The notes under the pieces were generated by a model. It saw only the letters and a list, made by a program, of their open reading frames with translations. It ran no database searches and was not told the DNA's origin. Below are positions 343 to 27,643 of a DNA stretch of 33,955 nt, one piece after another (position 1 is the first letter of the stretch; each line of letters opens with the position of its first letter). The DNA is from a virus (Duplodnaviria; Heunggongvirae; Uroviricota; Caudoviricetes). The position numbers and the translations under genes were made by a program. The stretch spans positions 1 to 33,955 of IMG/VR virus record IMGVR_UViG_2778261417_000008, one strand, 5' to 3'.

Positions 343-1707
343 CGGAGTCTGGATATAGTCTTCGGCTGGCTGGAAGAAATCCTTCGGCAACTGTTTGAAG
401 AAAGATGCTGCATCAGCACCAGCAAACATCCCCATCGCACCAGAAGATTTAACGCGCTCAATAATGTCGCGATATACAGTCTGGAATTTGCCACGAATGA
501 TGGTTGCCCATACATCAAAGGACTGGTTAACCGGCAGAGCGATGTCAAAGGTGTCGGTCGCAAGAGTACGCCAGATCATGATGCGAAGACGCAGCATATC
601 CTGTTCATGAGACAGGTATTCCTTCAGGGTGCGGAACTGTAGGGAACCCAGGTCCAGACCAAATTCACGCTGTGCTTCATACGCCGCCTGTACCGTGTGC
701 TCAGCCGCGATAACGAACTGGCTTGGGAACAGGGTGTATTTCTTCATTTCGTGGTTGATCAGCGGGATCAGCTCAGGAGCGGCTTCAATATTGATTTCCG
801 TCTCAATTGCGATCTCAGTGCCTTTATCCGGCGCTTTGGAGAACGACAGGGCAATCTGACCAATGTTGTAGTTCAGAGAGCAGGTAACAGTGATTTGCTC
901 ACCAGCAGCATTAGTAAACGAGTGAAGTAGGCTGCCGGAACCGTTATCAACAACAGACTTAATACGGTTAACGTAGATGTTAGTGCGACCTTTTCGGATT
1001 GGTACATTCTGGCCTTCGAAGTCTTCCATCTTGAAGGTTGCGGTTTTGCTAGTGCCATCGGAGCTTGCCACCAGCACATAGCGGCGACGTAACTGGCTGT
1101 ACACACCGACGGATTGCATGTCCAGAACATCACCAGCAGCATAAGAACCAAAAGAGGAACCTGCCACGTTAAAGACTTCATAGATGTCGGACTGGTCACG
1201 CGTAACCGGAATGAAGGTACACGCATCAGCGGTAGCTGCCCCCAACTGAACAGGCAGGATCATCGCGAGGAATAAAGGCAGACGCATAACACCGTCAGAA
1301 ACGCTCATCATCTCTGCTGCGACGGATTCCAGCATCGCTTTATTAGTGGCATCCATGCTATTGCGGGTAGACTCAATCAGGCAGTTTTCCAGCGTCTGGT
1401 GGCAGGAGGCCAGAATTTCCGGACGCGGCATAGATTTATGTGCTGCGGCGTAGTCAGCCAGTGCACTTGCCCACGCTGTAGCGATTTGAGCGGTGGCATT
1501 ATCAGAGATACCCGCAAAAATTGGGTCCTTACGTGCAGCTTCAAGGATAGATGCGGCACGCGCGGCATCATCTTTAATGAATTGGTTATCAGTACCGAAC
1601 TGCGCAGTGCTTGCCCAGCCAAGCACTGCTTTAGAGCGTTTTGCGATATCTGCAATACGATTCTGGTATTCGCGTAAGTTACTCAAGTTACTCTTCCTTA
1701 AACACAA
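316..1707 (-). CDS. Hypothetical phage protein, 3' end truncated by the IS1 insertion (last ~8 codons and the stop are read from IS1 sequence); candidate P1 gene-23-like head protein by position only
   Basis: Long ORF whose reading frame crosses the IS1 terminus at 342. Position next to parS only loosely suggests a virion gene. There is no in-frame ATG near the 5' end; a likely start is TTG at about 1686 preceded by AGGAAG. Confidence 0.45.
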   Translation of the reverse strand: MCLRKSNLSNLREYQNRIADIAKRSKAVLGWASTAQFGTDNQFIKDDAARAASILEAARKDPIFAGISDNATAQIATAWASALADYAAAHKSMPRPEILASCHQTLENCLIESTRNSMDATNKAMLESVAAEMMSVSDGVMRLPLFLAMILPVQLGAATADACTFIPVTRDQSDIYEVFNVAGSSFGSYAAGDVLDMQSVGVYSQLRRRYVLVASSDGTSKTATFKMEDFEGQNVPIRKGRTNIYVNRIKSVVDNGSGSLLHSFTNAAGEQITVTCSLNYNIGQIALSFSKAPDKGTEIAIETEINIEAAPELIPLINHEMKKYTLFPSQFVIAAEHTVQAAYEAQREFGLDLGSLQFRTLKEYLSHEQDMLRLRIMIWRTLATDTFDIALPVNQSFDVWATIIRGKFQTVYRDIIERVKSSGAMGMFAGADAASFFKQLPKDFFQPAEDYIQTPGNAANLLI

Positions 1708-1821
1708 GGCACTTGTGTGAATCCCTTTTCGGAAGAGATTTTATTGAAAGTCACTTGTTGACTTTCTCGTGACAAGCAATTTTTTTATTTTTTTCGGGAG
1801 TAGGGGAGGAAGGTAAAATCC

Positions 1822-1910
1822 AAGGTGAAATCGTGGCGATTTCACCTTGAAATTTTAGAGTGATTTACTTTAAAAACAGTAGGTTAATAGTGAAATTTGA
1901 ATGGCGAAAG
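1822..1910 (-). promoter_or_regulatory. parS: parS partition site (centromere): heptamer box A and hexamer box B motifs on two arms around an A/T-rich, IHF-like core
   Basis: GTGAAAT/ATTTCAC heptamers at 1826-1832, 1840-1846, 1891-1897 and TGGCGA (=TCGCCA) hexamers at 1835-1840, 1903-1908, immediately downstream of parB. Confidence 0.8.
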
Positions 1911-1911
1911 T

Positions 1912-2913
1912 TTAAGGCTTCGGCTTTTTATCGAGGCTCTTTCTAAGGATATGCCCAATCATCCTGTCGAGTTCTTCCTGTAGCTCTTTTGAAAGTCGAT
2001 TAAACTCATAAGAAAATGCACGGCCTTTCACGCGCTTCCTTGCAAAGCGATCCTTGTCCTCAAATTTCCATAATTCAGTAACTACGGACTTATCTTTAGA
2101 ACCTTTATCCGTGAGTAGTGAGGCTTCCTTTGTTATCAAGCGCAGGATTTTATTTTTAACTTCATCTTCGGCCATTTCTTCAATGGATAAGATGTCGTTT
2201 ATTTCCGGGGATATGTTTTGAATAAGCTGATCAAACTCTAAATTCTTGTTCCCCATTTCGTCGCCAACAGCACAAAGCGTTTTGTAGTCCGAAAAGGTTA
2301 ATTCCGACTGCACAGGGAAAAGGGCGACTAATTCTTCCGGAGCACTCGCTGCCTGGAGAGCACGCGTGACCTTCGCCTGAGACAGCCCTTCTTTGGCTGC
2401 AATATCCTTCTGACTCATCCCATCATTTTTCATTCGCATCAAACGCAGACCTATTTCTCGAATGCTGTGCTGCAATGCTGTCTGAACGTCTTTCGCTAAA
2501 TTTTGCGCTTCCTGAACGCTGATCTCCTGGTCCGTGACTAAAACCCGCAACCCTACGTTCTCTAAGATGGCAGAAGCTCGACGCCGGGAACCATCCAAAA
2601 TTTCAATTTTCCCTGTAGCCCGTCTAACACCTATTGCAGGGTAAAATTGCTGATGCTTAATAGTGCTTCGGATACTTTTTAATGATTTTGGCGTAAGAGA
2701 TGCCTGGTCACGCCCGTTGTTATGCTGATCAACAAAGGTATCGCTTTCTACCTGGTTTGGAGGTATTACCTCTTCAATAAATGTGGCCTGGCGACCAGTT
2801 GATAACTTGAATACCTGCTCGACTCGATCGCCAGAGGCTGAAGAACTATCAAATCCGCTTAATATTGAAGGATTAAGGGTTCGCCCAATTGTTGGTCTGT
2901 TTTTCTTTGACAT
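1912..2913 (-). CDS. parB: ParB partition protein (P1 type, 333 aa)
   Basis: Length and sequence match P1 ParB as I recall it; sits between parA and parS. Confidence 0.93.
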   Translation of the reverse strand: MSKKNRPTIGRTLNPSILSGFDSSSASGDRVEQVFKLSTGRQATFIEEVIPPNQVESDTFVDQHNNGRDQASLTPKSLKSIRSTIKHQQFYPAIGVRRATGKIEILDGSRRRASAILENVGLRVLVTDQEISVQEAQNLAKDVQTALQHSIREIGLRLMRMKNDGMSQKDIAAKEGLSQAKVTRALQAASAPEELVALFPVQSELTFSDYKTLCAVGDEMGNKNLEFDQLIQNISPEINDILSIEEMAEDEVKNKILRLITKEASLLTDKGSKDKSVVTELWKFEDKDRFARKRVKGRAFSYEFNRLSKELQEELDRMIGHILRKSLDKKPKP

Positions 2914-2929
2914 GGGGGTTTCTTACTCC

Positions 2930-4126
2930 TCAGTTAGATCTGATAAATTCAATACGGTCAAAAACTGCTTTAGCAAAATCTTCCGCGGCAATTCGCGCGT
3001 TCTTCAATGCATCAGCACTACCAACATACGTTGCCGGGTTAGCTGAAATAACAGTGTCAAAAGACTCGCCGCAGCGTTCAAAACCGTCAAGGCGAGGGAG
3101 GACGACATCAAGCATATCCCCACCGAACACTTCTTTAGCCAGGCTATGGCAATACTTATGGTCTGCCTTGTTACTCAACTTGGACATAAAACCAATGTTA
3201 GTCGCAAGCTGGCACTCGCAGCCTTCATCCGAAATGAGTTTCACCAACTCAGGAAGGCGGGCAACGTATTTAAGCGATGAGTGGAAATCAACCGTTGCAG
3301 GCGGCAGAGGTGTAAACAGTATATTGGCCGAGGCCAAAGCATTTTTCAGGAAGGCGTCAAGGTGAGGACCACTATCAACGAGGATAAAGTCATAATCGCT
3401 CTTCAGCTTATCAATCACATTTTCTTTCAGGACTGCATGGATGTTCTGACCCGGTAGATGCTCATTGCACAGCTCTCTCCAATCGGATGCAATAAAGGCA
3501 TCGTCAATCGACGCAGGCATAACGTCAACCCCAGGTACAACAGAAGGAACAATAAACTCCTCTAACAGCTCTTCACGGCTTACATTCTGCAACATAGCCT
3601 GTGCAGATGTTGCGTTTACGATACCAATAGAGTGTTTATGGCTTAAAAACATCGTTGCTGAAGATTGCGGATCAAGGTCAATAACCAGAATCCTTAAATC
3701 TTCCATCAGAAGATGAGGGTGAGCACGCATTGCATGCGCCAGAGAAACCGTCGATACAGTTTTTGACACACCGCCTTTAAGATTGGAGATGAAAATCACA
3801 TACGCTTCGCTGTAGCGATCCCGGTATTTTGGCACTCCGCGATGTTCATATATGTCAATGATGTTCTGAATTGACATCGCATATTTCATTGAAGAGCCAG
3901 CAGGGCGTTTATCGAAAACATAACCCTTTTCTTCCATTTCACTCACGGCATAGTCAACGTTCGCTCGAGTCAGTAGAGGCAATTTTGCCAGTGCCGCTTT
4001 CGCATAGACCTGGTAAAACTCGTTCGCGTGTAGCTCATCCTTTTGCAACTGTACTTGTTCAGTCAGAACATTGAGCATTCTGTTTGCTCTTTGAGCAACC
4101 TTGTGAAGCTGGCTGGAATCACTCAT
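2930..4126 (-). CDS. parA: ParA partition ATPase (P1 type, 398 aa)
   Basis: Deviant Walker A motif (NLKGGVSKT); N-terminal extension typical of type Ia ParA; length 398 aa as in P1. Confidence 0.93.
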   Translation of the reverse strand: MSDSSQLHKVAQRANRMLNVLTEQVQLQKDELHANEFYQVYAKAALAKLPLLTRANVDYAVSEMEEKGYVFDKRPAGSSMKYAMSIQNIIDIYEHRGVPKYRDRYSEAYVIFISNLKGGVSKTVSTVSLAHAMRAHPHLLMEDLRILVIDLDPQSSATMFLSHKHSIGIVNATSAQAMLQNVSREELLEEFIVPSVVPGVDVMPASIDDAFIASDWRELCNEHLPGQNIHAVLKENVIDKLKSDYDFILVDSGPHLDAFLKNALASANILFTPLPPATVDFHSSLKYVARLPELVKLISDEGCECQLATNIGFMSKLSNKADHKYCHSLAKEVFGGDMLDVVLPRLDGFERCGESFDTVISANPATYVGSADALKNARIAAEDFAKAVFDRIEFIRSN

Positions 4127-4141
4127 CGAAAGTCATCCTTT

Positions 4142-4176
4142 ATGCTGTATTTTTGAATTTAATTAAAAATGCTGCA
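4142..4176. promoter_or_regulatory. par operon operator: imperfect inverted repeat upstream of parA
   Basis: atgctgtattttt…aaaaatgctgcat palindrome directly upstream of the parA start. Confidence 0.55.
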
Positions 4177-4264
4177 TAAAATAATAATGTATGCGTAGAT
4201 GCTTGTACATAGCATTCTCTGCATGTTTGGTTCATTTTGCACGATTGAGAGTTACAAGGAGGGC

Positions 4265-4287
4265 ACAAAAAAGCCCCGTTCAGGGGC
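4265..4287 (-). terminator. Rho-independent terminator for the gene at 4295-5104
   Basis: Minus strand reads GCCCC-tgaac-GGGGC followed by TTTTTTGT. Confidence 0.7.
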
Positions 4288-4294
4288 ATCAGTG

Positions 4295-5104
4295 TTATTT
4301 GCTAAGAGCAGCGAATAATCGTTCGAAATCGATAGTATCTATAGCACGCGTAAGCGCCGGAAGTTCAGCCTCAAAGTACCCGTGTCGATCGTAAAAGAAG
4401 GGACCGAAGAGCGAGGCATGTTGGATTCTACTTCGCCCCAGCCCGGACACACAGTTAAGCCCATTACCGGCTAAAAGGCTAAAAAACTTCTCTGGATTAT
4501 CGTGGTAAAGCTGGGAATCAATGGTGGCGGTTAACTCTTCCATAGGGAAGCACACCCGCCCTGTATCCCAGGGATATTTAGTCCGAAGCATAAACATTGC
4601 TTTCAGCAATTCACATTGAGCGCGGATCGCGTCCGGTTCATAGCCAGATATGGAGACATAAGCCACGTCCCTCATTCCTGCGTCATCTTTGAAAGTCACG
4701 ATAGAAGTAACATCCAGCTCTTTTTCGAAAGAGCAAGCAGCATCTACTGGACGCTGAAGTAAATCATTCGACTTAATGCGCTCGAGAATCCCTCCCCACA
4801 TATCATTTAGATATTCGATATGAGCCAAAACCTTATCAAGACACTCTCGTGTAAACCATTCAGTATGCCCGCCACCGGCGCTTTTCTCCCACGGCGCATT
4901 CCAGGGGAAAAAGGTTGCGTGTAAAGCCCGCTCAAGATTAACCATTGCCAAACGCGTACCACGATAGACCCGTGAAAGCGCAAAATCGGGACTCACTTGT
5001 AGCCCTTTAAACCGTGCCAATGGACCACATGAAATGCCGATTTTAAAAGTATCTCCGTTCTCTGGCACCAGAACGTAGAGGTAGTGTTGTTTCTCTTCTT
5101 GCAT
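4295..5104 (-). CDS. T5orf172 / GIY-YIG-like domain protein (N-terminal about 100 aa) with an uncharacterised C-terminal domain
   Basis: N-terminus YLYVL…FKIGIS…GHTEWF resembles the T5orf172 family. Standalone gene with its own terminator, between the incA-like iterons and the par operator. Confidence 0.5.
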   Translation of the reverse strand: MQEEKQHYLYVLVPENGDTFKIGISCGPLARFKGLQVSPDFALSRVYRGTRLAMVNLERALHATFFPWNAPWEKSAGGGHTEWFTRECLDKVLAHIEYLNDMWGGILERIKSNDLLQRPVDAACSFEKELDVTSIVTFKDDAGMRDVAYVSISGYEPDAIRAQCELLKAMFMLRTKYPWDTGRVCFPMEELTATIDSQLYHDNPEKFFSLLAGNGLNCVSGLGRSRIQHASLFGPFFYDRHGYFEAELPALTRAIDTIDFERLFAALSK

Positions 5105-5134
5105 ATCAATACCACTGCTTGATGAGAACCGCGC

Positions 5135-5365
5135 AAATGTTGACTATGCGCGATGTGACTACAGTCAAAAGTTGACTGTAGTCGATTTAACTCCACCAAA
5201 GATCGACTATGTAAGATATTGTCGGGAGAAACGTTGACTATACGCGATGAAATGCCCCTAAAAGCCATCCCAATAGCGACTTGCAGAATATTGACGCCAG
5301 CAAAAATCCACCAGCGTCAACGAATGTCGCCTATAGTCAACTTCTCGCTATCGCATATAGTCAAT
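5135..5365. repeat. incA-like iteron array downstream of repA (about 7-9 copies, both orientations)
   Basis: Repeated GTTGACTAT(A/G)CGCGAT-like units at 5139-5155, 5171-5187, 5201-5217, 5233-5249 and inverted copies near 5305-5360. Confidence 0.75.
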
Positions 5366-5366
5366 A

Positions 5367-6251
5367 TTATGGATTGCGCTTATGGATCTGGAAGCCGATT
5401 TTCCTGCCGTTTTTTATCTCTGAAAATTTAAGATATTCAATAGCTTCCAAATCTTTCATGGCTTTTCTGATAACGCTATTTTGCACGCTAACGGATGATT
5501 TGAGATTAAGCCTCGCTCTAAGGCGCTCAATGCTGACAGGTGCCGGGTTGGCGGGTAGAGCCTCAAAGAATGTATACAGTACCTTGGCCGTCTCTTTGCG
5601 CCCTAGTTTATCCAGCATCTTCAGCTTCAGGATTCGCTTATAGTCAACATAGTAAAGTTCAGATAGCTGTTTCTGCGGCTGGATCTCGATAACATCAAGC
5701 TCGGTATTCAGGCTGCTATATGCCAACAAGTTGACGTTAATGTTATTGAGATGACCTTTTGCCGCCGGGAAGCGGAATTTGACAACTGTCTGCTGAATGC
5801 GTGTCAGAGAGTCATCAATACTTTTACGGAACGCCTTTGAAAGGCGCTTACGTGGATAGCCGCATCGATCGGCAAACTCGGAGAATGGCAGGGTGATTAT
5901 GCCGTCATCATCAGGTGCGTAGTCAAACAACGCGGAGGTTATGCCCACCCACACCTTAAAATCAGTATCCATATCCAGGCGTGGACCATGAATTTCAATT
6001 CCCTCATAGCCTTCCTGCTCAACAATTTTGAGGCTTGATAGTTCTTCGGTTGCGTTCGTTGTGTTTGTAGTAACTGACGATCCGCGACGTAGCGCCACAT
6101 TGGTAGATTTTAAGGTTGGCACAAACACACCTAAGCGCAACAAAGCGATGGGTTGTATAGTGCTGTTGTTATTGGGCTTCAGGCTGTGGATTTCTCCTGT
6201 ATTTCCTGCAACTTCTTCAACGCTAAGGAAGCCTTTACTTTCTTCCGGCAT
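5367..6251 (-). CDS. repA: RepA iteron-binding replication initiator (P1 RepA family, divergent)
   Basis: Shares blocks with P1 RepA (…QPIALLRLGVFVP…, …GPRLDMDTDFKVWVGI…). Likely start is the ATG at 6251 (GGAG 7 nt upstream); the ORF track extends to 6287. Confidence 0.85.
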   Translation of the reverse strand: MPEESKGFLSVEEVAGNTGEIHSLKPNNNSTIQPIALLRLGVFVPTLKSTNVALRRGSSVTTNTTNATEELSSLKIVEQEGYEGIEIHGPRLDMDTDFKVWVGITSALFDYAPDDDGIITLPFSEFADRCGYPRKRLSKAFRKSIDDSLTRIQQTVVKFRFPAAKGHLNNINVNLLAYSSLNTELDVIEIQPQKQLSELYYVDYKRILKLKMLDKLGRKETAKVLYTFFEALPANPAPVSIERLRARLNLKSSVSVQNSVIRKAMKDLEAIEYLKFSEIKNGRKIGFQIHKRNP

Positions 6252-6330
6252 CGCGGTTTCTCCATGTGTGGCGCGGCCTGACGTCAATTTGGATGGCTGT
6301 TATCAACAGCTGTGAATATTCAGACTCTAA

Positions 6331-6433
6331 AATCGCTTACAGTCAATGTTTCTGTCGCGTATAGTCAACAATAAATCGCGTGCAGTCAACAATAAATCGT
6401 GCACAGTCAACATAAAATCGCGTATAGTCAATG
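6331..6433. repeat. incC-like origin iterons: five direct repeats at about 21-bp spacing upstream of repA
   Basis: AATCGCGTATAGTCAAC-like units at 6331-6348, 6354-6371, 6374-6392, 6395-6413, 6416-6433. Confidence 0.85.
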
Positions 6434-6545
6434 TTGATCCCATTTCAGGCCAGAAATGGCGCGGCTTACAGCGATCCGGGATCTTCTTTGGATCTTCCTA
6501 GGTTCTCTTTAGGATCTGTTTATTGGATCTATGCTGTGGATAAGT
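6434..6545. promoter_or_regulatory. Origin-associated GATC cluster (six or more Dam sites) and DnaA box (TTATCCACA, minus orientation, 6533-6541)
   Basis: Dense GATC repeats (tgatccc, cgatccggg, ggatcttc x2, aggatctg, ggatctat) and a consensus DnaA box next to the iterons. Confidence 0.7.
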
Positions 6546-6585
6546 TGAATAAACCGGCCAACATAGCCGGTTGGAAGGAAGGGTA

Positions 6586-6978
6586 TTATTCTACGCTTTC
6601 GATAAGAAGACCATGTTCATAACATTTAAGCTCATCGCCTTCGTACAGGAATTGGTATCCAATACCACCATTTTCATGGACATTAGGGAATAACTCATAA
6701 CTCACTGAAGAGCAAATCACACCAATGCAGCGATCAACGCCTTCTCGTTCTTCAGTGCTGAAAAAATCCTCTTCGGTAAGAACATGAGTACATTGCTCAT
6801 CAGCATAGGTCGGAAATACATGCTCGATGCAATCCGGGTGTTTTAAACCAAGCTGATCGGCAAGCTCGAAAGCATGACGGTATTGTTCAGATCCTGGCTT
6901 GCCAACAGTGATGTGCTCAATTTTGTAGATTGAAGTCGCTTTGTTGATAGTTTGCTTTACTGTTACTTTATCAGACAT
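6586..6978 (-). CDS. Hypothetical Cys-rich protein (130 aa)
   Basis: Clean ORF adjacent to the origin; no family recognised. Confidence 0.45.
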   Translation of the reverse strand: MSDKVTVKQTINKATSIYKIEHITVGKPGSEQYRHAFELADQLGLKHPDCIEHVFPTYADEQCTHVLTEEDFFSTEEREGVDRCIGVICSSVSYELFPNVHENGGIGYQFLYEGDELKCYEHGLLIESVE

Positions 6979-7106
6979 AAAAATCCCTTTTAGTTACCGC
7001 TGATAGCGCGGTTGTAATCATTAACGTTGCGATTCTTCCTGTTAATCCCCATCAGCATCGTTTCTGAACCGCCCCGGGTTTCCTGGAGAGTGTTTTATCT
7101 GTGAAC

Positions 7107-9849
<2,743 letters not shown>

Positions 9850-10267
9850 CGTAAGTAAAATCAGCCACCCACAGCTGGTCAGGTCGTTCTGCCACGAACT
9901 GACGGTTTACGCGGTCGCCTGCGGCAACGGCTTTCCGGCTGATGGTCGTACGGACCTTTTTACCCCGGAGAACACCGGCAAGTCCCATAACCGCCATGAG
10001 ACGTGCCACAGTGCATCTGGCCACTCTGATACCTTCCCGTAACAACTGACGCCAGACTTTACGCACACCGTATACCTTGTGATTTTCATCGTATACGCGC
10101 TGTATCTCTTTCTTCAGCCAGTCATTGCGCTGCGCACGGGCACTGCGTTTATCCGGATGATGTCGCTGTTGCTGACAGTGGTAATACGTTGACGGGGCAA
10201 TATGTAGTTCACTGCATACCGGTCCGACCCCGTACAGCTTACGCAGCTTATCCAGCAGTGGCATCAC
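9850..10267 (-). CDS. IS3-family transposase OrfB, N-terminal exon (upstream of the intron)
   Basis: …QLWVADFTY is the first D of the DDE motif; the ORF-track frame then reads on into intron sequence. Confidence 0.8.
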
Positions 10268-10590
10268 TTTTTCCAGAGGCGGTCGAACTCCGCCTTCGCA
10301 AAATAAGCGGAAGCCTGGCGAAGGATATCGTTACTGCGGCGCAGTTCACGATTTTCACGTTCCAGCTCTTTCAGACGCTGACGTTCAGCGGTGGTGAGCC
10401 CTCCATCACCGCCCCCGGTATCCCGCTCATGCTGGCGAACCCAGACACGCAGAGTCTCCGGCGTACAGCCAATCTTTGGAGCAATGGAACAAATTGTCGC
10501 CCATTGTGAGTCATATTCGCTCTGACTTTCCAGAACCATACGGACTGCCCGTTGACGGACTTCGGGGGAAAAACGAGTATTTTTAGTCAT
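10264..10590 (-). CDS. IS3-family OrfA (HTH/leucine-zipper transposase subunit), IS629-like
   Basis: 108-aa translation [22 protein letters not shown]…[33 protein letters not shown] matches IS629/IS1203 OrfA from memory. Confidence 0.85.
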
Positions 10591-10644
10591 CCTGTTTACC
10601 TCTTTCTCAGGAAGTTTAGTCTCCAGGATTCCCGGGGCGGTTCA

Positions 10645-11002
10645 CTATTACCTGGCCGTCGTATTGGAAATGGCGAATCATTTCGCGGATCCAGGTGGCA
10701 GGTGGGAGTTTTAATTTTTTGCCAACAGTCATACCCTGAGACTCATCCTCAAGCCCGGCGGCGAGCGTCACAACCCAGCGTAGCTCTGCTATGCCCCACA
10801 TACGGTAAGCCAGCAAATCCGGGCGATATTGCTCATCGGGAAGAACGTAATAAATCGTCAGATTCTTGTCGTTCGATTCACACATAAGCATCACCTCTTT
10901 GCGTAGCTCTGCCCTGAGTATTGGATCGGCTATGTTGCGGTCGTCATACCGCGACAGAGGATATTGCCGGGTGCTTTGGGTTGTAGTGATTGATGTAGCC
11001 AT
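10645..11002 (-). pseudogene. Hypothetical protein, 3' end truncated by the IS629-like insertion
   Basis: ORF 10616-11002 reads through the IS terminus at 10644; its C-terminal residues are IS-encoded. Confidence 0.5.
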
Positions 11003-17104: not shown

Positions 17105-20100
17105 CTATATTTTTCCGCCTACGCCTTTAAACTTCTCAATAAACGAGACGATTTTCTGGAAAACTGCCTGTTTTTTCGTTTTATATTGCGGATTTAACGG
17201 ACTAAGTTTTGGTAATGTTTCGTTTAATTCTGTGCCATTTTCGGTGGCATATTCGCGTTTTAAAGACGTGCGAATATAGCGTTTTGCTGCATCTTCATTG
17301 AGATTTTCTTCTTTTATCAATGCTTCTGCTTCACGTTGCTGTTCGCGTTGAGCAAACGTAAAGAATGCGTCAATGATGCTGGCTTTGTCCGGTAAATCAT
17401 CCAGGTTCGTTTGCTGAATAAAATCGACCACCAGGCCCTCTTTAGCACGGTTTCCCAGGCTTGAACGAATTAAGCGTTTGACCTCTTCGATCATTTCGCC
17501 CTTGCCTTTATTTTGTCTGTTGTGTTCGAAAATCAGTCCAAGGATATAATCCAGGTTTATTTCCTGAGACTTCAGCAAATCGACCTCAAAAACTACGTCA
17601 TCCCAGTCAGTGGTTGATTTCTCTTTTTTCTCAGCTTCTTTCTCACGGCGCTGCCAGTCGCGAATATCGTTATAGGCAGAACGATAATCCTGAATCTTGC
17701 GATCAGCAGGGAGACGAATTGTTTGCAATTCAGCGAACTTTTCATCATCCACATAATGTTCTGCTTTGAATTTTTCTACCGCAACAGGATCGCTAAGATC
17801 GATTTGTTGCAGGGCTTTTAGCGTGGCAAATTCATCATAGTTTTGCAGGATGTTCTCGGCACGCAGGTATTCGCCAAACAGTTTAACGAAGTCTTTCTTC
17901 TCTTTTTCACTTTCAATACTGGTAGGGTCAGGGAACCGTTGTTCCAGTTCTGAAACTACTGTCATGAAGCCGCGTTTAGCTTCACCTGTAGCAGCATCAG
18001 TAAAGCCTTCCATATACTCTGTATAACTCTTTTCTAACACCACATTTTTGGTGTTTTTGTCACCAAACAGCGTTATGGCATCAATAGTTGAGCGTTCCAG
18101 ATCCCGGAAAGTGACGATATTACCGAAGGTTTTAGTGGCGTCATAAATGCGGTTGGTGCGGGAAAATGCCTGCATCAGGCCGTGATAACGTAAGTTTTTA
18201 TCGACGAATAGCGTGTTCAATGTTGGAGCATCGAAGCCGGTTAAGAACATCCCCACGACAATTAGCAGATCGATATCCTGATTTTTAACCCGCTGGGCTA
18301 AATCACGATAGTAGTTCTGAAAACCGTTACTGTCGGTGCTAAAGTTAGTTTTAAAATGGCTGTTATATTCACGAATTGCAGCGTCCAGAAACTCTTTAGC
18401 ACTGCTGTCCATTGCGCTGGTATCAAAAGTTTCATCGGAAATTTCACCAATGGCATTTTGTTCTTCATTGGCGGCAAAGGAGAAGATTGTCGCAATACGC
18501 AGCGGTTTATAGGTAGCCGATTTATTAGCGGCTTCTTCTTGTAACCGTTTAAACGTCGCATAATAGGCTTTCGCGGCATCCACGCTGCTCACTGCCAACA
18601 TAGCATTAAAACCTTTTGAGCCAGGGAAGGTACGGTGGGTTTTCTGGCGGAAATTATTCAGAATATATTGCGTGATTTCCTGAATACGCATGGGATGAAG
18701 AAACGCCTGCTGATTTTCAGCCGCACTCAGTTTTTTCTCGTCAGTTTCTGTCTCTAAAGACTTAAACTGTGGCCGCACATCGTTGTAGTCCACCTTGAAT
18801 TTGAGCACTTTTTCGTCACGAATCGCATCGGTAATTACATACGAATGCAATTCACGACCAAATACGCTGGCGGTTGTTTCTGAGCCTAAGGCGTTTTCCG
18901 GGAAAATAGGGGTGCCGGTAAAACCAAACTGATAATAGCGTTTGAATTTCTTCTTCAGGTTTTTCTGCGCTTCTCCAAACTGGCTGCGGTGGCATTCATC
19001 AAATATAAACACCACTTGCTGATTATATACAGGCAGATCGCTTTCTGCTTTCATCAGGTTATTGAGTTTCTGAATAGTAGTGACGATAATTTTGTTATCG
19101 TCCTTATCCAGATTTCGTTTAAGGCCTGCGGTATTTTCCGAGCCGTTGACGCTGTCTGGCGAAAAACGCTGATATTCCTTCATGGTCTGGTAATCGAGGT
19201 CTTTCCTGTCGACCACAAAGAAGACTTTATCAATAAAGTCCAGCTCTGTTGCCAGACGCGCGGCTTTAAAGCTGGTGAGGGTTTTACCAGAACCGGTAGT
19301 GTGCCAGATATACCCACCGCTTTCCGGTTTTGACCAGTTCTTCGCTGTAAAGGAACTCTTAATTTTCCACAGAATGCGCTCGGTGGCGGCAATCTGGTAC
19401 GGTCGCATTACCAGTAGTGTCTGACTGCTGTCAAAAACGCTGTAGTTCACCAGAACATTAAGCAGAGTATGTTTCTGGAAAAAGGTGGCGGTAAAGTCTT
19501 TGAGGTCTTTAATCAGCGTATTGTCTGATTTCGCCCAGTTCATGGTGAAGTCAAAACTGTTTTTATCGCGCTTTGTCGTGTTGGCAAAATAACGGGTATC
19601 AGTGCCGTTGGAAATGACGAACAGCTGCAGATACTTAAACAGGGAATTTTCGCTGTTAAAACTCTCTTTACTGTAACGATGTATCTGGTTGAAAGCCTCA
19701 CGAATCGCCACGCCGCGTTTTTTCAGTTCGATTTGTACCAGCGGTAAGCCATTAACCAGGATAGTTACGTCATAACGGTTAGCGTGAGAACCCGCCTGTT
19801 CAAACTGCTGGATAATCTGCACCTTATTGCGCATGAGATTCTTTTTATCTATCAAATAGATGTTCTCAAGACGCTCGTCATCAAAAATAAAGTCGCAAAT
19901 ATAGTCGATATGGATTTTACGGGTCTTATCCAGAATGCCATCGCTCGGGTTATCCAGATACTGCTCCGTGAAACGCCGCCACTCGCTGTCATTAAACACC
20001 ACACCATTGAGGTTCTGAAGCTGTTCCCGAACATTGGCCAGCATCGCCGACTGTGATTTTACGGATATAAATTCATAGCCCTGATTCCGTAGGTCCTGTA

Positions 20101-20221
20101 TCAGTTCGCGTTCCAGGTCCGATTCGCTCTGGTAGCTGTCGCCTGTTGGCTCAGCTTTGATGTACTTATCAAGAACGATAAAGTTATTGGATTCAGCAAT
20201 GGTGTGTGTCTGATGAGTCAT
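17105..20221 (-). CDS. hsdR: Type I restriction enzyme R subunit (HsdR), type IC / EcoR124-like
   Basis: 1038 aa; helicase motifs ([22 protein letters not shown]); length matches EcoR124 HsdR as I recall it. Confidence 0.9.
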
Positions 20222-20342: not shown

Positions 20343-21557
20343 TTAATTACTGACAGTTTCAGGTTTCGGGAAACTGAACAGTAAATCACGATAGTACTCG
20401 TATTGTTTCTGGCGCAACTCGATTTCACGCGGAAGACCTTCGGTGATGGAGTTAGTCAGTGTGTCGAATTTGTCGAGTATTTCGACAATTCGTTGTTGTT
20501 CATTGATGTTAGGAACCGGAATTTTAAATGAAAATAATTTTTTACTGTCAATAGAAGCTACGGACCCTCCTGTCTTTTTCGCTGCTCGCAGAATATCACT
20601 CCCCCTAGACCCAATCATATGATAAATATATTTAACCAAGATGTTTTCATGAGGAATGACTGCTTTCATATCTTGATTGAGCGTAGCAGGTACTTTTATT
20701 AATGCACTTGGTAATACTTTATCCAATATGCTTGAGCGAACAACGATTGCAATCGAGTTTGCTGGAATCAGTTTTGTTGACGATTGTAGAACAGCCTCCT
20801 CAGTTATATAGTCTTCCGAAGAGTCTACAAGTGTTCGGCCCATATCTTTCGGGGAAATCCATGGAATGCTTCCATTTTCCCAAAATTCAATTTTATTTTT
20901 TGATGGTGTCCCTCCCCCATACCATTTTCCGATCTCTCCCAAAGTCTTCCACTCAACCTCACCCTCTTTAAAACTCAACAACTGGTCGCGATAGTAGTTG
21001 TACTGTTTTTTACGCATGTTAAGCTCAGCGGTAAGCTCAGCGGTAAGTGCAGTAAATTTATCCAGAATCCGAACGATTTCAGACTGGATGGCAAGGGATT
21101 TTTCCGGATTATCCGGGCAGGGGATTGGGATTTTTTTTTGAGAATAATTACTAATCCATTGGCGTTTATGGTCTCCCTCTGCGAATTCACTTGGTAATGT
21201 ATTGAGCCAATAGTAAACATATTTCAGTAAGGTTTTATTATCATCACATGATGTAACCATTTTCATGGCCGATGATTTTGCCTTAAAGTCAAAATCCACC
21301 CATTTATTAGCGGTGGTGAAATCATCAAAAATTATTACAGGTGCCTTTGATGCCTGATAAATACCATGAGTCTCATTTGTGTATCCAAGAATAAATGTTT
21401 TTCCGGCAGTAAGAACCGGTATGGTATATGTGTCGTGATAATCTTTTGCTTTTACCAAATACTTTGTTGGCTGTTCATATTTGGTTATTTCCCCCAATGG
21501 CAACCACTCAACTTCAACCCCATCCAGCAATTTTTCCAGATAACTCATCTCGCTCAT
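20343..21557 (-). CDS. hsdS: Type I restriction-modification specificity subunit (HsdS), EcoR124-like
   Basis: 404 aa with two target-recognition domains around a central conserved region containing TAELTAEL; 4-nt overlap with hsdM. Confidence 0.9.
21021..21044 (-). repeat. Tandem 12-bp repeat (2 copies, encoding TAEL-TAEL) in the hsdS central spacer region
   Basis: aagctcagcggt aagctcagcggt on the plus strand; the next 12 nt (21045-21056) are a degenerate third unit. Confidence 0.85.
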
Positions 21558-23116
21558 TTCTGCACCTCGCAGCCTTCAATTTCAGCCACAATCGCATCAA
21601 TATCTTTGCGCAACTGGTCGATTTTGCTGACCGTGGTTTTCAGCTCAGCATTCAGCTCAGCAATATCGATAATTTCGCGGTTATCTTTCGCTTCCACATA
21701 GCTGCTCACCGACAGGTTATAGTCATTAGCAACAACGGTCTCAAACGCGACAGATTTCGCCAGATGAGCAACATCTTCCTTGCTGGCAAATACCTGCATA
21801 ATCTGTTCGATATGGGCATCGGTCAGGATATTGTTGTTAGTCTCTTTTTTGAACAGTTCGCTGGCGTCAATAAACTGAACGTTGGTATCCGTTTTATGTT
21901 TGGACAGAACCAGAATGTTTACTGCAATGGTGGTGCCAAAGAACAGGTTCGGTGCCAGTGAAATTACGGTTTCGACATAGTTATTGTCAATCAGATACTG
22001 ACGGATTTTCTGCTCCGCGCCGCCACGGTAAAAAATACCCGGGAAGCAAACAATCGCAGCACGACCTTTGGCAGAAAGATAGTTCAGCGCATGTAATACA
22101 AACGCAAAGTCAGCTTTGGATTTGGGGGCCAGAACGCCAGCCGGGGCAAAACGTTCATCGTTAATCAGCGTCGGGTCATCGCTGCCAATCCATTTCACCG
22201 AATACGGCGGGTTAGAAACGATGGCATCAAACGGTTTTTCATCTCTGAAGTGTGGCTCAGTCAGTGTATTACCCAGCTTGATATCAAACTTGTCGTAGTT
22301 GATGTTGTGCAAAAACATGTTCATACGTGCCAGGTTATAGGTTGTATGGTTGATTTCCTGACCAAAAAAGCCTTCTTCGATGATATGGTCATCAAACTGT
22401 TTTTTAGCCTGCAACAACAGCGAACCGGATCCTGCTGCCGGGTCGTAGATTTTGTTAACGTGGGTCTGCCCGTGCATAGCCAGTTGTGCAATCAGCTTAG
22501 AGACGTGTTGCGGTGTAAAGAACTCGCCGCCTGACTTACCGGCATTCGCCGCATAGTTAGAAATCAGGAACTCATAGGCGTCACCGAACAGGTCAATCTG
22601 ATGTTCGTTGAAGTCACCAAGTTTTAACCCTTCAACCCCTTTCAGAACCGCAGCCAGGCGGGCATTTTTATCTTTAACGGTGTTACCCAGGCGGTTACTG
22701 GTGGTATCGAAATCAGCAAACAAACCTTTGATGTCAGCTTCTGAAGGATAACCGTAAGCAGAACTTTCGATAGCAACGAAGATGCTGTTTAAATCTGCAT
22801 TCAGTCTGTCATTAGTATTTGCTTTCGCAGCTACGTTGCAGAAAAGCTGACTGGGGTAGATGAAGTAGCCTTTAGTTTTGATGGCATCGTCTTTAATGTC
22901 ATCAGTAATTACGCTGTCATCCAGTTTCGCATAACAGATACTGTCATCACCGGCTTCAATATAACTGGAAAAATTTTCGCTGATAAAACGGTAGAAAAGT
23001 GCGCCCAGAACGTATTGCTTAAAATCCCATCCATCGACCGAACCCCTGACATCGTTAGCAATTTGCCAGATTTGACGATGAAGCTCTGCACGTTGTTGAA
23101 TACTTGTCATTTTCAT
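21554..23116 (-). CDS. hsdM: Type I restriction-modification methyltransferase subunit (HsdM), EcoR124-like
   Basis: 520 aa; N6-adenine methyltransferase NPPY-type motif (VSNPPYS) and AdoMet-binding region. Confidence 0.9.
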
Positions 23117-27324: not shown

Positions 27325-27504
27325 TGTTTTTTAACTACCGATGTTACATTGAGCCTGACCTCTTGCGCCTTGAGGCATTTTCGGTTTATGCTTATCAGGC
27401 ACCTCATTAAAACGGGTGCCGGGATTGGCCTCCCGCTTAAGTCTAAGGCGATACAGACGCCGCTCGCGTCTTTTTTTTGTATCGGCGTACACGCACACCT
27501 CTAC

Positions 27505-27580
27505 AATGGTGGGCTGTATGGGGCTACCTTCGGGTAGGCTGGTTACCTTGGACGCCAGTAAGGCCAACTCCGTACAGTCC
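27505..27580 (+). ncRNA. c4: Candidate c4 antisense RNA (immI repressor RNA); boundaries approximate
   Basis: tRNA-like closing stem (ggctgtatgg / ccgtacagtcc) followed by ACCGCC. Internal CCUUGGACG (27545-27553) is complementary, with one G-U, to CGUCUAAGG at the icd ribosome-binding site (27624-27632) and to an upstream copy at 27441-27449. Confidence 0.45.
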
Positions 27581-27643
27581 ACCGCCAGCAAGATTGGTCT
27601 CTTCTGCGGTGGTTACATACCAACGTCTAAGGAGGCTGCCAAT

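Follow-up and report, generated by a model that had tools for sequence, protein, structure and literature searches.

A p0111-type replication cassette in place of the IncY replicon beside a P1-type partition locus

We analysed a plasmid maintenance region in the left part of a viral DNA of 33,955 nucleotides (nt), positions 1 to 33,955 of IMG/VR virus record IMGVR_UViG_2778261417_000008 (Caudoviricetes), and refer to this whole stretch as the window. In minus-strand reading, the region comprises the parS centromere, parB, parA, the par promoter, a hairpin, an open reading frame of 269 amino acids (aa), an array of repeats, the initiator gene repA, five further repeats, a stretch rich in GATC sites, DnaA boxes and upfA (Table 1). 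An initial annotation, made from the letters alone, had named iterons, RepA, a par locus, a DnaA box and a GATC cluster here, and each of these features was found in its place. Judged from alignments, the partition system of phage P1 is kept, and a replication cassette of the p0111 type lies where P1 has its own IncY replicon.

The partition side was compared with the annotated P1 and P7 regions, which served as comparison sequences throughout. Window positions 343-4228 are 99.3% identical to P1 in nt sequence, and the products of parA and parB, taken as essentially P1-like in the initial annotation together with parS, are P1 proteins almost to the residue (Table 1). Within parS, all box A and box B sites for ParB carry the same sequence as in P1; of the three differences, two are inside the annotated integration host factor (IHF) site and one lies in a spacer. 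Both the ParB/parS specificity and the helix-turn-helix (HTH) domain of ParA assign the system to type Ia, of the P1 and not the P7 kind. This bears on the published account of a close relative, phage RCS47: a passage in PMC5241659, citing the RCS47 paper, gives ParA and ParB of that phage as identical to P7 and distant from P1. Our alignments of the RCS47 proteins (2808-5022 of its record) give 100% identity to P1 for ParB and 99.7% for ParA, against 39.9% and 57.1% to P7, and the par type of RCS47 as worded in that passage appears to be reversed, being P1 and not P7.

Identity to P1 ends abruptly in BLAST alignments at 4228/4229, about 19 bp upstream of the -35 element of the par promoter, and from 4229 to ~6445 there is no nt similarity to P1 or P7. 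The block so delimited measures ~2.2 kb, against 1.5 kb in P1, and sits exactly at the position of P1 incA-repA-incC. It holds the origin iterons, repA, the control iterons, a gene for a GIY-YIG/T5orf172-like protein and a terminator-like hairpin. On the right side P1 homology returns gradually, starting ~15-20 bp from the outermost iterons, with identity rising from ~81% across the GATC/DnaA stretch to 95.6% in upfA and 98-100% beyond. At ~80% identity, the GATC/DnaA half of the origin is best described as a diverged homologue of that of P1, not as foreign DNA. The extent first given to the mosaic, 5110-6545, is too short on the left, where the replaced block begins at 4229 and holds the extra gene.

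The proposal that a replicon was swapped while the partition system was kept is therefore upheld by a par side that matches P1 and a neighbouring block, at the incA-repA-incC position, that matches neither P1 nor P7; the alignments support allelic replacement of the replicon cassette. Cointegration of a second replicon was also considered and is ruled out, as P1 repA and the P1 iterons are gone and the cassette occupies exactly the P1 position.

The initiator was likewise aligned with its P1 and P7 counterparts and the iterons were compared with the P1 19-mer, and neither approaches identity with P1. RepA had been recognised as a member of the P1 RepA family that differs at many positions, which agrees with a BLASTP identity of 42% to P1 RepA (E = 9e-71); the value is 42.3% for P1 and P7 RepA and 45.7% for SSU5 RepA, and the 42% identity to P1 RepA has been published before (PMC5241659). 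The iterons had been described as unlike the P1 19-mer. Their 16-base core, ATCGCGTATAGTCAAC, of which the GTTGACTATACGCGAT noted earlier is the reverse complement, has 11 matches with at most three mismatches in the window, where 0.26 would be expected, and all of them lie in 5139-6432. The P1 19-mer, GATGTGTGCTGGAGGGAAA, taken from the P1 record, finds no match with at most three mismatches anywhere in the window, and the window iterons are unrelated to it. With no P1 19-bp iterons, a RepA only 42% identical and no nt similarity across the block, the replicon is, by iterons and initiator, not a member of IncY.

Table 1. Features of the partition locus, the replaced block and its right flank (window coordinates)
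Feature	Position	Strand	Details
parS centromere, P1 type	1825-1907	-	80/83 bases identical to annotated P1 parS
parB, P1 specificity type	1912-2913	-	333/333 aa identical to P1 ParB; 39.9% to P7 ParB; Pfam ParB domain PF08775
parA, type Ia, N-terminal HTH domain	2930-4126	-	397/398 aa (99.7%) identical to P1 ParA; 57.1% to P7 ParA; Pfam HTH_54 and AAA_31
par promoter TGTACA-N17-TATTAT and final P1-homologous bases	4181-4228	-	promoter scan site 4209-4181, corresponding to annotated P1 Ppar
Terminator-like hairpin GCCCCTGAACGGGGC followed by TTTTTTG, downstream of GIY-YIG gene	4273-4287	-	putative terminator
Gene for 269-aa T5orf172/GIY-YIG-like protein (gp57 in JL22), in replaced block	4295-5104	-	Pfam T5orf172, 27.5 bits (cut-off 20)
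Control iterons past the end of repA (P1 incA analogue)	5136-5368		
repA, p0111-type iteron-binding initiator, 294 aa	5367-6251	-	294/294 aa identical to RCS47 RepA
Iteron copy within repA coding sequence, TTCGCTTATAGTCAAC	5633-5648	+	2 mismatches to consensus
DnaA-box-like 9-mer TTATCAACA, between origin iterons and repA	6300-6308	+	1 mismatch to TTATCCACA
Origin iterons, five in direct repeat every 21-22 bp (P1 incC analogue)	6332-6432	+	
Six GATC (Dam) sites	6436-6529		at 6436, 6473, 6480, 6491, 6513 and 6526; 0.4 expected for length
Tandem DnaA boxes	6535-6552	-	perfect TTATCCACA at 6535-6543, two-mismatch TTATTCAAC at 6544-6552; read from the sequence
upfA, right flank	6586-6978	-	125/130 aa identical to P1 UpfA

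Despite the unrelated iterons, the replicon is laid out in the manner of P1, with five direct origin iterons flanked by DnaA boxes and a GATC cluster and with a second, bidirectional iteron array directly downstream of repA. The IncY replicon of P1 and P7 has the same order, namely tandem DnaA boxes, Dam cluster, five iterons, a further DnaA box, repA and a two-orientation array from the stop codon, together with a homologous initiator (42%) and the same genomic position. P1 likewise spaces its five origin iterons at 21-22 bp in the equivalent place; P1 oriR has five annotated Dam sites, and the GATC stretch of the window aligns with them, as the tandem DnaA boxes align with the annotated tandem boxes of P1. 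The inner DnaA-box position is conserved in RCS47 and in L011, a chromosomal remnant, and holds a perfect box in L006, a phage-plasmid-like contig (both described below). What sets the window apart from P1 and P7 is an unrelated iteron sequence, fewer control iterons, an iteron inside repA and the extra 269-aa gene with its own terminator-like hairpin.

The first iteron of the control array starts one base past the repA stop codon, as read from the sequence. Three strong iterons (5139-5154, 5171-5186 and 5233-5248) are inverted relative to the origin set and two (5326-5341 and 5350-5365) share its orientation; scanning with a weight matrix brings in two more, both degenerate, within 5199-5220 and 5303-5324. 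Against these five to seven copies, the P7 annotation has three plus six and P1 has nine. The early description of an architecture otherwise the same as that of P1 thus stands for the five origin iterons, the DnaA box and the GATC cluster, and does not clearly hold for the longer control array: with five strong and two degenerate copies against five, the array is not clearly longer than that of the origin, because one 30-bp unit is missing in the window. Aligned with two relatives, RCS47 and NZ_CP027133.1, the window has a 30-bp gap at 5139 that corresponds to exactly one control iteron unit, and such a loss fits recombination between neighbouring repeats. The short array is also present in 4 of 60 sampled Escherichia coli records, and we therefore regard it as a circulating allele and not as private damage.

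The iteron copy within repA is identical in L006, though repA of L006 is only 75% identical in nt sequence, and P1 repA has no equivalent. We considered it as a conserved regulatory site and rejected it: the copy lies in a 17-nt identical run within a gene whose third-position identity is 48%, yet five other runs of 14-32 nt occur in repA, which leaves the match as weak evidence.

RepA is predicted to share the tandem winged-helix fold of the solved initiators RepE, pi, pPS10 RepA and RctB, to which it has only 10-14% sequence identity. Pfam detects Rep3_C at 27.3 bits (cut-off 21.1) and Rep3_N at 22.0 bits, just under the cut-off of 22.4. An AlphaFold model built from 22 homologues, with a mean predicted local distance difference test (pLDDT) of 76.9, matches RctB (domains 2-3), F RepE, R6K pi and pPS10 RepA with a Foldseek probability of 1.00 (E 3e-7 to 3e-4). 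The global template modelling (TM) score of the model is low, at 0.28-0.36, probably owing to the relative orientation of its two domains; the first winged-helix domain (WH1) alone reaches a target-normalised TM-score of ~0.6. A sequence search of the PDB with RepA returned nothing significant, and NCBIfam searches with RepA, P1 RepA and the GIY-YIG protein returned no matches.

Protein searches with RepA recover a tight p0111 cluster, a variant at 85%, a Proteus relative at ~53% and then a large RepFIB/SSU5 group at 44-49%, with no sequence between ~53% and 85%. The last group, comprising the RepFIB-type initiators of IncFIB plasmids and those of SSU5-like phage-plasmids, belongs to the same family and is slightly closer to RepA than P1 RepA is; in this comparison, made on protein only, it forms a cluster separate from p0111 RepA. 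E. coli and Klebsiella plasmid records of the RepFIB group number many thousands, an O157:H7 plasmid among them.

The replicon of the window is near-identical to the PlasmidFinder p0111 type (reference AP010962), the type of phages RCS47, SJ46, JL22 and phi456. Positions 5105-6560 (1,456 bases) are 98.0-99.7% identical in 12 phage records, these four and others, and in 399 PLSDB plasmids, and among 5,426 complete E. coli genomes 415 (~8%) carry the p0111 replicon. Two p0111 relatives, RCS47 and NZ_CP027133.1, share the gene order, the P1-type parABS, the GIY-YIG gene and upfA, and are collinear with the window at 97.5-98.6% over 343-7066. Relative to them, the window lacks the one control unit, has an IS1 and an IS3-family insertion sequence (IS) element bracketing the module, and is missing the backbone past upfA. 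Membership in p0111 is thus marked both by near-identity of RepA and DNA and by the place of the cassette between P1-type par and upfA with the GIY-YIG gene. With a probability of about 90%, we take the region for the low-copy maintenance module of a phage-plasmid that is P1-like and has a p0111-type replicon, in the lineage of RCS47, SJ46 and JL22, with part of its mechanism assigned by analogy to P1. As a separate observation, the MOB-suite label of NZ_CP027133.1 in PLSDB is "IncHI1B", which, for a p0111-type P1-like plasmid, looks like an artefact of the typing database.

Two diverged lineages carry related replicons in other settings. L011 is an integrated remnant in the chromosome NZ_CP148493.1 (1019564-1023331), where a p0111-type RepA (98.3% aa and 89.6% nt identity) adjoins a P7-like par (91.8% to P7), with an upfA pseudogene and IS elements on the flanks. 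L006 (DABKFZ010000018.1, 37713-50597) belongs to a distinct 91-kb phage-plasmid-like contig that carries tail and head genes related to those of P1; RepA identity is 85% in aa, no parA is adjacent, and the replicon lies elsewhere, between pmgB and the tail-tube gene. It has five origin iterons and a perfect inner DnaA box, shares the GATC/DnaA stretch and carries an array downstream. Because the architecture is kept and aa identity is high while nt identity is low in L011 and L006, the comparison indicates a working replicon under purifying selection.

p0111 and IncY have been recognised as the two replicon types of P1-like phage-plasmids, and replacement of one by the other has been described (PMC9603915, PMC11165635, PMC10879196). 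In JL22, repA (p0111) and gp57, an unknown gene, replace repA (IncY), and 24 of 55 P1-like phage-plasmids are p0111 (PMC9603915). Another survey assigns p0111 to 63 of 119 P1-like phage-plasmids and to 28 of 38 derived plasmids (PMC10879196), and in Salmonella there are 132 p0111 and 94 IncY elements, with ~17 replicon-type switches inferred on the phage-plasmid tree (PMC11165635). The replacement of IncY by p0111 and its arrangement are thus already described and common, and are not a special mosaic of this window. The finding carries little weight as something new, since typing of P1-like phage-plasmids routinely uses the division into p0111 and IncY, and we offer it as an illustration of how modules are exchanged in phage-plasmids. 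The unit exchanged is the part that sets replicon specificity (iterons, initiator and control iterons), while the partition system and the origin's host-factor half remain in position. What is added here is the deletion of one control iteron in the window, the nearly constant joining of p0111 to P1-type par, the rare co-residence of IncY and p0111, and a copy bracketed by IS elements in a degraded element.

The joining of replicon and partition types can be followed in the 5,426 E. coli genomes, by arithmetic on hit counts and not by direct intersections. The p0111 replicon query hits 415 records in its 415 genomes and the P1 (IncY) replicon query hits 362 records in 361 genomes; both queries joined hit 777 records in 774 genomes. 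A native P1 query from parS to the iterons hits 773 records, 153 of them with at least 80% coverage, and a synthetic query of P7-par plus p0111 hits 631 records, none with at least 80% coverage. From these counts, p0111 and IncY occur together in ~2 genomes against 27.6 expected under independence (Poisson P ~4e-10), an expectation that ignores population structure, and no single record holds both replicons.

IncY is joined to P1-par in ~153 records, P1-par without IncY is found in ~411, matching the 415 p0111 records, and IncY without adjacent P1-par is found in ~209, which appear to carry P7-type par. P7-like par and p0111 come together in one record only, that of L011; as only this record joins the two, P7-type par is placed in ~217 records, near the 209 records of IncY without adjacent P1-par. 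p0111 with P1-par is the commonest configuration, and P7-type par appears nearly confined to IncY.

These counts also bear on the direction of the exchange. p0111 and IncY could be two old homologous alleles of one locus, or the reference P1 could itself be the swapped one, and the window would then not be a derived mosaic. The cassettes are distantly homologous and share one architecture, their host-factor origin halves are ~80% identical, identity returns gradually with no sharp break, p0111 with P1-par outnumbers IncY with P1-par (~411 against 153 records, with ~209 other IncY), and repeated switches have been placed on the Salmonella phage-plasmid tree (PMC11165635). Against such a history, the left junction passes from 99% identity to none in a few bases, and the extra gene of the cassette is not in L011 and looks derived; nothing here polarises the event. 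We take this as a serious possibility, if not the one we favour, which is replacement of the IncY cassette by p0111 in a P1 background.

For incompatibility, the expected consequence of that replacement is divided. Replication-based (incA/incC) incompatibility with IncY should be lost, because the iterons are unrelated to those of P1 and the initiator is 42% identical. Partition-based (incB) incompatibility with P1-par elements, P1 included, should remain, because ParB and parS are shared. The one functional claim of the initial annotation, that incompatibility would change, is thus a reasonable expectation for the replicon only and does not extend to the shared partition system. In the literature, compatibility of p0111 and IncY is stated as a theoretical possibility (PMC11165635), and we found no report of an experimental p0111/IncY incompatibility test in the accessible literature.

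The scarcity of genomes with both types might instead mean that the swap leaves incompatibility unchanged in practice, so that p0111 and IncY elements still exclude each other. Such exclusion would be in line with the ~2 genomes observed where 27.6 are expected, with a ParB identical to that of P1 and a parS likewise of P1 type, and with the homology of the DnaA/GATC halves of both origins. We consider it unlikely, since incompatibility in this class needs shared iterons and a cognate initiator, neither of which is shared here, and the depletion could equally arise from phage immunity, superinfection exclusion, par incompatibility or host population structure. Additionally, the ~209 IncY records without adjacent P1-type par (P7-type par being placed in ~217) would differ from p0111 in both determinants. 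The linkage of p0111 to P1-par, the linkage of P7-par to IncY and the rarity of co-residence are all cautions for typing and for arguments that a replicon swap is an escape from incompatibility.

This copy of the module lies in a damaged setting. Positions 1-342 hold the end of an IS1, which cuts short the adjoining P1 major head gene (gene 23) at 343, and the element probably cannot make capsids. On the other side, 7065-10645 is an IS3-family (IS629-like) element with orfA at 10264-10590 and a frameshift pseudoknot at 10193-10309; its transposase gene orfB is split by a group II intron, with a reverse transcriptase/maturase at 7670-9193 and an Rfam intron match at 7580-7666. The flanks of this element read TTC and CTA, and the absence of a target-site duplication suggests IS-mediated deletion or rearrangement. 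Between 7064 and 10646, ~15 kb of the intact p0111 plasmid NZ_CP027133.1 are absent, including counterparts of mlp, ppfA, rdgC, the dam-family methylase gene dmt, a tellurite/colicin resistance gene, the dnaB-like ban and unnamed neighbours; these genes may be present in another part of the element, beyond the window. Because IS elements bracket the module and ~15 kb are absent at that point, the element looks like a degraded P1-derived plasmid, of a kind already described (PMC10879196).

Such decay raises the question of whether the replicon still serves its molecule. It might be an inactive relic, the molecule being kept by another replicon outside the window, as would suit the head gene cut by IS1, the intron-bearing IS3-family element, the backbone missing between upfA and 10646, the deleted control iteron and the report of additional Inc types in half of P1-derived plasmids (PMC10879196). 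However, repA is intact and its product shares 100% identity with RepA of the inducible phage RCS47, the five origin iterons, DnaA boxes, GATC sites and whole par operon are intact, and the short control array circulates in other E. coli records. We therefore judge a relic improbable and favour a maintenance module of the p0111 type.

By analogy with P1, such a module would work as follows. RepA would act as a tandem winged-helix initiator and bind, as monomers, to the five direct repeats of the origin. With host DnaA on the boxes at either side of these iterons, RepA would open the adjacent GATC-rich stretch. That stretch would be methylated by Dam and sequestered after replication, with its methylation state coupling initiation to the cell cycle. 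The array past the repA stop codon would limit copy number by titrating RepA and through pairing of the array with the origin (handcuffing), and RepA is assumed, as probable, to repress its own gene. ParA, ParB and parS, unchanged from P1, would segregate the copies.

Several points weigh against reading the region as a maintenance module of this kind. For initiation, handcuffing and autorepression, the model borrows from P1 by analogy. No convincing sigma-70 promoter was found for repA and none is conserved across lineages: between 6251 and 6432, a consensus promoter scan of the repA strand gave nothing, and an alignment of four lineages shows no conserved -35/-10 pair. The copy sits in an IS-ridden, partly deleted element, so that its own activity is at most presumed. 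Lastly, the rare co-residence of p0111 and IncY fits immunity, superinfection exclusion or a shared par and does not demonstrate compatibility; the loss of replication-based incompatibility is a prediction.

The GIY-YIG gene in the replaced block matches PHROG 2876, a function-unknown family, with E = 1.6e-194, and its match to a nuclease-family domain is marginal. A PADLOC search of the protein gave no match, and we therefore claim no defence role for it. The gene is found in 412 of the 5,426 E. coli genomes, nearly as many as the 415 with the replicon, and among the matches listed it directly adjoins the replicon in the records common to both. It is not in P1 or P7 by BLAST, nor in L011 or L006; as these diverged p0111-like lineages carry the replicon without the gene, the two are separable. 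Rather than passive cargo, the protein could be a homing-type nuclease that would cut the IncY allele of a co-infecting P1-like element and, through repair by the flanking par and upfA homology, convert IncY to p0111. If true, homing would account for the abrupt left junction beside the gene, the switches of replicon type reported repeatedly on phage-plasmid trees, the almost exclusive link between this gene and the main p0111 lineage and the near absence of dual-replicon genomes; we regard it as a highly improbable, speculative scenario.

Elsewhere in the window lies a type I restriction-modification system, with hsdR at 17105-20221, hsdS at 20343-21557 and hsdM at 21554-23116. Rfam models also match, above gathering score, an isrK-like RNA (27399-27476) and an adjacent C4 antisense RNA (27502-27589); in P1, C4 RNA is part of the ImmI immunity region.

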